A stretch of 32,000 bases of DNA from Candidatus Saganbacteria bacterium. Lineage in GTDB: Bacteria > Margulisbacteria > WOR-1 > JAKLHX01. Under the pieces are notes generated by a model. That model did no database searches, was not told the origin of the DNA, and worked only from the letters and a program-made list of their open reading frames with translations. The stretch covers positions 30,001 through 62,000 of the forward strand of contig JAPLKZ010000011.1 in assembly GCA_026387835.1 (NCBI GenBank). The letters run 5' to 3'. Below are positions 5,716 to 15,168 of the stretch, piece by piece. A program made the position numbers and the translations under genes. The number at the start of each line of letters is the position of its first letter. Positions within the stretch are counted from its first letter, which is position 1.

Positions 5716-7296
5716 TTATTTTCCACCCGGATTGAAGGTATAAGTGTCGTAATATAGTTTCATTGTTCCGGCTTTTGACGTAATGCCGGGGGGTGTCAGG
5801 GATGTTTCCATTTCTATTTCGCTGTCTATTGCTTTAATGGTATCCGTTAAGGCGCCTCTAATGCCGGTATCAGGTTTAACCGCAACATTAAAACGAGCTA
5901 ATATTTTATTAAGGCCTTCCAGGTTCCTAAGCTCATCTGCTTTCAGGGAATTATCATCGATCTTTGCAATAATTGCCTTAAGATAGATATTTAGATCTTT
6001 ACGCAGATCAAAAAACAGAGCCCTTTCAAAGTAATTGCGCAAATAAAAGAAGCACACTTCTTCTTGCCTGTACTCAAGTATCAAATTGAACGCCTTATCA
6101 ATATTCTTTAATGCGGAATCGATATTATCCTTGGTTGGATCTTTCATGTCGGCAGACGCCATCGCCATGAAGGCCTGCGCTCTGTAACCGTAAAAGTTGC
6201 TCGGTTTTTGGAGGTCTTTATAAATAAACGGTCGCCTGAACTGGCCGAAAGTATCGAGCTGGCGGTACCAGTCTTTTGAGGCTTTAGAATATTGTTCCCT
6301 GAGTATCGATGCTTCAGGCGAAGTTCCCCTTGTGTCTTCGGCCGCGGTTGAGAATAGAGCTCCTAAATAGAGCATTGTTTTTGCCGCCTCAAATATCTCG
6401 CCGTAATCGGTCCTGTATTCGATGCCCGAGAAATATGAAATATCGCGGTGCGTTTTTGTTTTTTCCGGATCAAGGGCTTCAAGGTGCTTTGGTTTTCTTG
6501 CGGTAGAGCAAAGCTCCATGGACCATTCAAAATAATTTCTGATGGTCTCGATATATTGTTTTTTTCCATCATCATTGGTCATGCCGTCTTTGTTCAGGCC
6601 AGGGACGATCCCTCTTTGAAATTTGAGAAGATGGATCAGCCCGGCTTCATGCGAGGCGCGCATCTTATAGCCGAGATTTGCCCGCCCCTCATCGTCGTTG
6701 ATGATCCTGTTCAGAATGGCCAGCGCGTCTTCGAATTTTTGATGGTCCTCTGCCTCCAAGGCCTGCGCCCTGTAGATCTGAGATTTAAGGAATAAGGCCT
6801 CGTAGTAAAAGTCAGAGTTCAGATATCTGCATTTAATTATCGTTTCGCACTGCTCGATCGCCTTGTCAAAGTCCTTATCAATAAAATAGTTCGTGGCAAG
6901 GTCTATCCTGGCCTTTAATGTGGCGGCTATATCGCGCGATGCGGTGTTAAGCGACTTTTTTAGGACAGATTCTTGTTGCTTTATAAGGAACTTCATTCCG
7001 GAGGTGCCGGACTGCGTTCCGGTAAAAACAAGGATCCTCGGGATAATGCACCCGCATTTCTTGACCCATGTTTCCCTGTCAGCGGCGCCAAGGTCTTCCG
7101 CGTCAAAGAGTACCGTGCTGCCGACGGTCACCTGCATCCTTCTATTGTCTTGCCTGAGGCCGGGCAATGTTTTGTCCGTGACAGCCCTGTCCAGTTTTGA
7201 GGCGATATTTATGGCGCGCTCAACGGATGACGTTTCGATCATGACAGAACCTTTATACGTCACATTATTATTAGTGATAGATATTTCATCGCTCAT
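5716..7296 (-). CDS. hypothetical protein with central TPR-like repeats, 526 aa; last gene of the four-gene operon
   Basis: ATG start with an AGGAGG RBS. The start lies 1 nt after the stop of the upstream 919-aa gene. TPR-like helical pairs are present (DFDKAIEQCETIIKCRYLNSDFYYEALFLKSQIYRAQA..., FEDALAILNRIIND..., YRAQAFMAMASADMKDPTKDNIDSALKNIDKAFNL). The N-terminal ~110 aa match nothing I recognise. Confidence 0.8.
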   Translation of the reverse strand: MSDEISITNNNVTYKGSVMIETSSVERAINIASKLDRAVTDKTLPGLRQDNRRMQVTVGSTVLFDAEDLGAADRETWVKKCGCIIPRILVFTGTQSGTSGMKFLIKQQESVLKKSLNTASRDIAATLKARIDLATNYFIDKDFDKAIEQCETIIKCRYLNSDFYYEALFLKSQIYRAQALEAEDHQKFEDALAILNRIINDDEGRANLGYKMRASHEAGLIHLLKFQRGIVPGLNKDGMTNDDGKKQYIETIRNYFEWSMELCSTARKPKHLEALDPEKTKTHRDISYFSGIEYRTDYGEIFEAAKTMLYLGALFSTAAEDTRGTSPEASILREQYSKASKDWYRQLDTFGQFRRPFIYKDLQKPSNFYGYRAQAFMAMASADMKDPTKDNIDSALKNIDKAFNLILEYRQEEVCFFYLRNYFERALFFDLRKDLNIYLKAIIAKIDDNSLKADELRNLEGLNKILARFNVAVKPDTGIRGALTDTIKAIDSEIEMETSLTPPGITSKAGTMKLYYDTYTFNPGGK

Positions 7297-7297
7297 A

Positions 7298-15104: not shown

Positions 15105-15130
15105 CTAAAAGGCCTATATATACGCATATT

Positions 15131-15168
15131 AGTTTTATATATCTCGAGAGGTTTTTTGGGGAATTTCA
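15131..15168 (-). promoter_or_regulatory. promoter-like box C2: TGAAAT-N16-CGAGAT, a tandem second copy
   Basis: Minus-strand read: TGAAATtccccaaaaaacctctCGAGATatataaaact. It lies 64 nt upstream of box C. Confidence 0.45.

Follow-up and report, generated by a model that had tools for sequence, protein, structure and literature searches.

Several described systems offer the nearest comparisons for the locus considered here. Operons for type III translocons (ipgC-ipaBC, lcrH-yopBD) encode proteins with no Sec signals and with central, weakly hydrophobic hairpins, together with a partner of the tetratricopeptide repeat (TPR) type; synthase-dependent exopolysaccharide systems (Bcs, Pga, Pel, Alg) combine polytopic membrane proteins and TPR proteins and adjoin nucleotide-sugar and glycosyltransferase genes; the LapB/YciM adaptors are all-alpha TPR-like proteins, likely placed on the cytoplasmic side of the membrane; and the anti-phage systems Zorya, Kiwa and Druantia are accessory cassettes in variable regions that join membrane proteins to very large proteins of unknown fold. 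Traits of each recur in a unit of four genes, for proteins of 892, 769, 919 and 526 residues, in a 32,000-nucleotide stretch of DNA (hereafter the window) from contig JAPLKZ010000011.1, part of a metagenome-assembled genome (MAG) of Candidatus Saganbacteria, a lineage that is sister to Cyanobacteria and of which we know no cultured members. Judged from its sequence, the unit appears to be a rare, accessory and conserved cassette.

The genes follow one another on the minus strand: gene 1 (892 residues, MCX5749782) at 12359-15037, gene 2 (769 residues, MCX5749781) at 10044-12353, gene 3 (919 residues, MCX5749780) at 7298-10057 and gene 4 (526 residues, MCX5749779) at 5716-7296. All four open reading frames (ORFs) start with ATG and have lengths identical to the NCBI gene calls, and the public annotation of every product is 'hypothetical protein'. 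The preliminary description of this DNA, made from its letters alone, had reported four minus-strand ORFs of these lengths, junctions of +5, -14 and +1 nucleotides and a Shine-Dalgarno sequence for each gene, and the coordinates and NCBI calls bear it out in full. Genes 1 and 2 are separated by a 5-nucleotide gap, genes 3 and 4 by a gap of one nucleotide, and genes 2 and 3 overlap by 14 nucleotides (10044-10057, minus strand), a candidate for translational coupling that has a counterpart of 10 nucleotides in the orthologs described below. AG-rich, Shine-Dalgarno-like motifs (aagagg, aaagg, gaggcgg and aggagg) stand 5-10 nucleotides 5' of the ATGs, and the 9.3 kb of uninterrupted coding sequence that had been claimed is indeed there, only 6 of the unit's 9322 nucleotides being non-coding. 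ORFs of 526-919 codons at a GC content of 45-50% would be impossible by chance (about e^-24 or less for each). The codon usage of the four genes correlates with that of annotated neighbours (r = 0.70-0.81) and their GC content at third codon positions (GC3) is 0.52-0.53, within a span of 0.52-0.59 for these and the annotated host genes together; since both measures are like those of the annotated genes of the window, the four genes can be taken as real and native. Each of the proteins forms a singleton cluster at 90%, and the window holds no tRNA or Rfam family.

The limits of the unit are set by a bipartite box, TGAAATTTC and CGATATATATATAGAGGGG about 12 nucleotides apart, that lies upstream of each unit on the window's minus strand and is found in other loci of the lineage. 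Its core pattern, TGAAAT-N15-19-CGATR, has seven occurrences in the window where 0.25 would be expected, all of them on the minus strand. The two copies said to stand upstream of gene 1 were found at 15168-15140 and 15104-15060. Copy 1, TGAAATTCCCC-N-CGAGATATATAA (15140-15168, minus strand, by pattern match), departs from the lineage consensus by one base; copy 2, TGGAATTTG...CGATAAATATATGCAGGGGGATA (15060-15104, minus strand), belongs to direct-repeat family D3 and is 67-78% identical to the boxes 5' of the genes for neighbouring proteins of 1337 and 2060 residues. At the other end, two boxes of the next unit, that of the 1337-residue protein (5546-5647, minus strand, by pattern and repeats), mark the 3' limit, while a scan for the core pattern found no box within 5716-15037, and the boundaries first proposed were correct. 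With their tight junctions, Shine-Dalgarno motifs and boxes at both ends only, the four genes appear to form one transcription unit.

With the 919-residue protein as query, a phmmer search run exhaustively over 1.84 billion cluster representatives returned one full-length relative, P0011 (790 residues, E = 2.6e-70), at 30-44% identity to the query. P0011 is encoded on a 6.9-kb contig, L004, with a GC content of 38% (versus 45-50% here). On its 5' side lie the C-terminal 385 residues of a homolog of the 769-residue protein (46% identity, E = 4e-57; the last 300 or so residues of the 769-residue protein are 46-49% identical to this ortholog), and on its 3' side a homolog of the 526-residue protein, P0017 (36% identity, E = 2e-90), the order of the three being that of the Saganbacteria unit. 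The 769 homolog overlaps P0011 by 10 nucleotides, the junction between P0011 and P0017 measures 17-23 nucleotides, and P0017 is followed by a promoter box and then by an unrelated gene for 514 residues, so that the downstream flank differs. Gene order, stop/start overlap and 3' boundary have all been preserved, at 30-49% identity. It had been anticipated that a lack of conserved gene order would point to lineage-specific, fast-evolving surface proteins; instead, a second, distant organism has kept both the 769-919-526 order and the overlap between the first two of these genes, and conservation in so divergent an organism argues for a conserved module rather than for proteins of that kind.

No match above noise was obtained for the four whole proteins in Pfam, NCBIfam, PADLOC or PHROGs, for ten of their sub-domains in Pfam, or for the L004 orthologs in Pfam, NCBIfam and PADLOC. 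The four proteins matched no PDB sequence, and profile searches of the PDB gave nothing other than a weak TPR match. Matches to DUF7937, Prefoldin and LapB, at 13-14 bits, were rejected as compositional. Searches with tblastn of all four proteins against 50,697 phage records, and of the 892-residue protein against 72,556 plasmids, were negative, and among IMG/VR contigs no relative turned up when alignments for the 769-, 919- and 526-residue proteins were used. A word-index search of 5.8 billion clusters with the 919-, 892- and 769-residue proteins returned only the queries themselves. GTDB genomes and Joint Genome Institute metagenomes, searched with alignments of the 769, 919 and 526 families and with a hand-made GRENPIETG pattern, held no further relatives (five matches to the pattern were put down to chance), and a positional-orthology scan of GTDB genomes with the neighbouring nucleoside triphosphate (NTP)-transferase gene likewise yielded nothing. 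The earlier statement that no known-family motif could be recognised therefore agrees with every library searched, in each of which the four proteins are ORFans, and no simple catalytic motif was seen. As far as these searches can see, nothing ties the four proteins to a family described so far.

The product of gene 1 has an N-terminal region of about 105 residues, then a putative membrane domain (residues 106-557; 13367-14722, minus strand, by hydropathy) of 12 semi-hydrophobic helices, and last a soluble C-terminal domain of 335 residues. The hydrophobic segments followed by a soluble domain had been correctly noticed beforehand; the count given there was about 10 segments and the length of the domain 320 residues, and the segments are only marginally hydrophobic. 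All 12 are rich in Gly, Ala, Ser and Thr, with Kyte-Doolittle means of 0.9-1.56, an Eisenberg mean hydrophobicity of 0.34-0.62 and a hydrophobic moment of 0.04-0.21, and this low moment together with the mean hydrophobicity argues against their being amphipathic surface helices. The domain shows no internal duplication.

In the 919-residue protein, two hydrophobic hairpins (residues 353-397 and 459-496) do lie between soluble domains, as had been described, although their hydrophobicity is again no better than marginal. The hairpins with the loop between them (residues 353-496; 8570-9001, minus strand, from hydropathy and the P0011 alignment) are conserved in the family, the loop being about 60 residues long, whereas the helical C-terminal part is variable; in P0011 the hydrophobicity of the hairpins, at 1.4-3.4 kcal/mol, would suffice for insertion, and P0011 has additional, more strongly hydrophobic helices. 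The N-terminal domain is also conserved and contains the polar motifs WGLNxGRENPIETGT, GEDTxTQ, GNRYxHT and YNPxDxxVRN, and these acidic and polar motifs mark it as the leading active-site candidate. A motif of the GYID type common to the C-terminus of this protein and the neighbouring 2060-residue protein is weakly significant (z = 3.1).

Absent from P0011 is a mobile module of some 65-70 residues inserted in gene 3 (residues 587-656; 8090-8299, minus strand), with the consensus ..GT(V/I)AKS.IP...(L/F)EK.K.(L/I)FEDP.AD.L.F(K/R)PNIT..QID.LD....TK..L..AH and with no Pfam family of its own. It was found only in large proteins of MAGs of the Margulisiibacteriota type that either have no Pfam match or carry GH26 (glycoside hydrolase family 26) or SecA-DEAD domains, among them a GH26 protein of 1459 residues and a SecA-DEAD protein of 4409. 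Its other occurrences are at L010 1320-1553 and 5132-5347, L011 1866-2123, L012 15665-15931, L016 9499-9699 and L017 5323-5511.

The 769-residue protein lacks hydrophobic segments and a signal peptide. The 526-residue protein begins with an alpha/beta region of about 100 residues and continues as a predicted all-alpha, TPR-like solenoid, its AlphaFold2 model being all-alpha over residues 95-499. With that model Foldseek returned generic TPR solenoids only (E>1e-3, TM-score 0.2-0.34); P0017 matched TPR_19 at E=1.4e-4 (22.6 bits, under the cut-off of 25 bits), and a two-sequence profile of the family reached E=2.3e-4 against a TPR-like kinesin light chain. With its all-alpha prediction and its generic TPR matches, all of them below threshold, the label 'TPR-like' is weakly supported. 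All four proteins lack an N-terminus of the Sec or Tat-like kind, while textbook signal peptides are encoded by genes of this genome that lie 10-20 kb off. A shared N-terminal 'hRh' motif was considered as a secretion signal and set aside as post hoc and inconsistent. In the absence of export signals the large soluble domains and the 769- and 526-residue proteins would by default be cytoplasmic. The placing of a complex in the envelope, as the preliminary description had it, is therefore doubtful, since all four proteins lack the Sec signals that their secreted neighbours carry. Its statement that the operon has no nucleoside triphosphatase (NTPase) fared better, for the Walker A pattern [AG]xxxxGK[ST] is missing from the 11 proteins of the surrounding block and from the orthologs, and no NTPase family of Pfam matched the four proteins. 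Neither paralogy nor a shared domain was detected among the four.

The block just mentioned is a run of about 27 kb on one strand, with 11 ORFan genes, that spans window positions 1-19191 and positions 14060-22454 of L001. In order, its products have 649, 288, 317, [892, 769, 919, 526], 1337, 99, 2060 and 549 residues. The same DNA, with one base differing, is present in three other assemblies, and it is these, taken with the window, that reveal the block. No significant Pfam, NCBIfam or PADLOC match was found for any of the 11 proteins, nor a PHROG match for the eight encoded in the window. The three upstream genes, for 649, 288 and 317 residues (15283-19191), have a GC3 of 0.37-0.40 and a codon correlation of 0.43-0.61, and their lower GC3 relative to the four target genes indicates that the block is compositionally mosaic. 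The 288-residue (16205-17071) and 649-residue (17242-19191, minus strand) proteins have in common an N-terminal domain of about 105 residues (37% identity), which is kept at 43-54% in L011 (2460-2999) and L016 (10040-10621), beside genes bearing the mobile module. The 649-residue protein also has four to five tandem repeats of about 57 residues (171-nucleotide period, window 17508-18342), and in one assembly the contig breaks within its gene. On the far side of the unit, the 2060-residue protein has a TPR-like N-terminal part, a beta-looking middle rich in Asn, Thr and Ser and a hydrophobic segment near residue 1360, and the 99-residue protein gave a weak EF-hand match.

One flank of the block consists of the NTP-transferase gene, two genes for UDP-N-acetylglucosamine (UDP-GlcNAc) 2-epimerases and one for a glycosyltransferase of family 2 (GT2), the other of a GH94 gene, with GH2, ATP-binding cassette (ABC) permease and GH26 genes farther away. 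One of the epimerase genes (22006-24528, minus strand) encodes an 840-residue protein in which the UDP-GlcNAc 2-epimerase domain occupies only the first 380 or so residues, the remaining 460 or so having no Pfam match, and a canonical epimerase of 408 residues is encoded directly downstream. For the GH2 gene (25562-27841, plus strand) the sources differ in the start, giving 759 or 731 residues; a minus-strand box at 25708-25733, serving the divergent GT2 gene, lies within the longer of the two and speaks for the shorter.

Across the window the lineage box was located at 1124-1150, 5546-5647, 15060-15168, 17119-17145, 19224-19250, 24553-24579 and 25708-25733, all on the minus strand, and elsewhere at L004 5102-5128, L010 9293-9319 and 17179-17205, L011 4911-4937 and L014 14498-14524. 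Promoters of the extracytoplasmic function (ECF) type have the form TGAAAC-N16-CGTA, and the TGAAAT-N16-CGAT box was at one point read as the mark of an ECF-sigma regulon. That reading was dropped because the box precedes all minus-strand units of the window and genes in four other lineage loci; it is more likely a general promoter of the Saganbacteria/Margulisiibacteriota lineage. A hairpin with a 9-bp stem (window 1138-1158), terminator-like on both strands, stands right after the gene for the 99-residue protein and overlaps the -35 part of the box of the gene for the 2060-residue protein.

As to what the cassette does, we tentatively favour an accessory complex, restricted to the Saganbacteria/Margulisiibacteriota, that would be anchored in the cytoplasmic membrane and face the cytoplasm, a proposal that we rank first among those considered here though it is less likely than not to be right. 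The 892- and 919-residue proteins would be inserted through bundles or hairpins of weakly hydrophobic helices rich in small residues; the 769-residue protein would bind the 919-residue protein, the conserved stop/start overlap keeping the synthesis of the two in constant proportion; and the 526-residue protein, as a TPR-like alpha-solenoid, could act as adaptor or scaffold. Membrane insertion, physical association and a biochemical role for the four proteins are all things we infer. As for a role linked to the envelope or to polysaccharides, the glycan genes nearby hint at one only faintly. A bolder form of the proposal, in which novel folds make up an unseen inner-membrane complex and the N-terminal domain of the 919-residue protein is a new enzyme of the cytoplasmic face, engaged in envelope glycan processing or in conflict between organisms, we consider unlikely.

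A number of observations weigh against the membrane complex. The segments of the 892- and 919-residue proteins are marginal, the biological-scale sum over 19 residues being mostly >4 kcal/mol versus -3 to +3 for ABC permeases of the same window. The AlphaFold2 model of the 919-residue protein, from a two-sequence alignment, is unusable (predicted local distance difference test, pLDDT, of 29), and the single-sequence model of the 526-residue protein has a mean pLDDT of 46, with residues 121-230 at 59-79; with models as poor as these, a known fold may be hidden. Two instances of the unit are known, and the comparison of gene order spans 769-919-526, because L004 starts inside the 769 homolog and leaves the 892-residue gene outside it. 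Of the searches of large protein collections, the exhaustive scan covered the 919-residue protein alone and the word index the 892- and 769-residue proteins, the 526-residue protein standing outside both; the word index missed P0011, 38% identical to the query, which makes its negatives for the 892- and 769-residue proteins weak, and those for the 526-residue protein are weak as well. The related loci L011 and L016, moreover, have the N-terminal domain of the 288- and 649-residue proteins and the mobile module and are missing the four genes, from which it follows that the unit is an accessory cassette.

The alternative that withstands the evidence best, though we would still call it improbable, is that the four proteins are co-transcribed and functionally separate, lineage-specific products (for instance of cell-architecture or helical-repeat type), their close spacing reflecting a compact genome. 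The 27-kb block is a patchwork of ORFan genes, unrelated to one another and with many helical repeats, the four proteins show no paralogy or common domain, and the 919/526 junction is loose in L004, at 17-23 nucleotides. Against it speak three genes kept in order at 30-49% identity though both flanks differ, the conserved 769/919 stop/start overlap and the conserved unit boundary with its promoter box.

Somewhat less credible again is a role in conflict, in which the 892- and 919-residue proteins would be made soluble and then insert into membranes as effectors, translocators or toxins, or would form the membrane-disrupting arm of an anti-phage system, and the TPR-like protein would restrain or deliver them in the way that class II TPR chaperones handle type III translocators. 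The marginal hydrophobicity of every segment, the missing signal peptides and the position of the TPR-like partner as last gene of the unit would all suit such proteins, as would the patchy distribution within a variable block of giant ORFans (L004 has other flanks, and L011 and L016 lack the unit), which also tells against the membrane complex, and the sharing of the 65-residue module with giants that have no signal peptide and bear GH26 or SecA-DEAD domains. Set against this, PADLOC, PHROG, Pfam and NCBIfam gave no translocator, chaperone, toxin or defence match, no secretion apparatus was seen in the approximately 55 kb examined, codon usage is native, and in size these proteins exceed known translocators and chaperones 3-5 times. 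Tape-measure proteins are long and helical, with Gly/Ala-rich hydrophobic stretches, and the likeness of the 892-residue helices to these or to an ejection protein, with the accessory distribution, could suggest the remnant of a mobile element or prophage, an origin that is largely refuted and very improbable given the lack of any PHROG match, of tblastn matches in the phage and plasmid records and of IMG/VR relatives, the host-like codon usage, and neighbours that are glycan and ORFan genes with no integrase, capsid, terminase or tRNA nearby.

Should the four proteins form a complex, each protomer set of this multi-subunit membrane assembly would comprise about 3100 residues, and no relation to catalogued families could be detected for it. 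For structural and functional work on microbial 'dark matter' the locus offers a bounded target, one promoter-delimited unit with two orthologous sets, although ORFan operons are common in candidate-phylum genomes and, with two instances only, its value is limited for now.

Returning to the described systems, the type III translocon operons resemble the unit neither in sequence nor by profile and differ from it in size, the proteins of the unit being larger by a factor of 3-5 and its TPR-like protein having 526 residues versus about 170 for the chaperones. The translocator families (IpaB/SipB/YopB and SseC-type) had no Pfam or NCBIfam match in the 892- and 919-residue proteins (whole or split) or in P0011, nor did chaperones of the CesD/SycD/LcrH type (about 150-170 residues) in the 526-residue protein, and there are no injectisome genes in the roughly 55 kb examined of the 140-kb contig. 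With respect to Bcs, Pga, Pel and Alg, no Glycos_transf_2, cellulose-synthase or PilZ match was found in the 892- and 919-residue proteins, and the 526-residue protein differs in having neither signal peptide nor beta-barrel, being predicted all-alpha to residue 499. Its match to LapB is slight (NCBIfam E=0.037, 13 bits versus a cut-off of 474; Foldseek E~0.03-0.07), the fold match is generic for TPR, and unlike LapB/YciM it has no N-terminal transmembrane anchor or rubredoxin domain. Among the anti-phage systems of PADLOC-DB 2.0 there was no significant match for the 18 proteins scanned (the four, three orthologs and seven other block proteins included), the sole one under E = 0.1 being a non-significant match of CARF9 to the 1337-residue neighbour (E = 0.017, 13 bits), and the unit differs from Zorya, Kiwa and Druantia in having no MotAB-like, helicase or nuclease component. 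Nearer home, the arrays of giant ORFans at L010, L011, L012 and L016 are likewise same-strand runs of Pfam-less giants with the lineage promoter box, and have the 65-residue module and the 288/649 N-terminal domain in common with this region; they differ in having no homologs of the four genes and in that their giants carry GH26, GH16, GH8 or SecA-DEAD domains. Differing from the translocon operons, exopolysaccharide systems, LapB-type adaptors and anti-phage systems in every defining feature that could be tested, the unit appears to be a member of none of the four, and what it has in common with them is a grammar.

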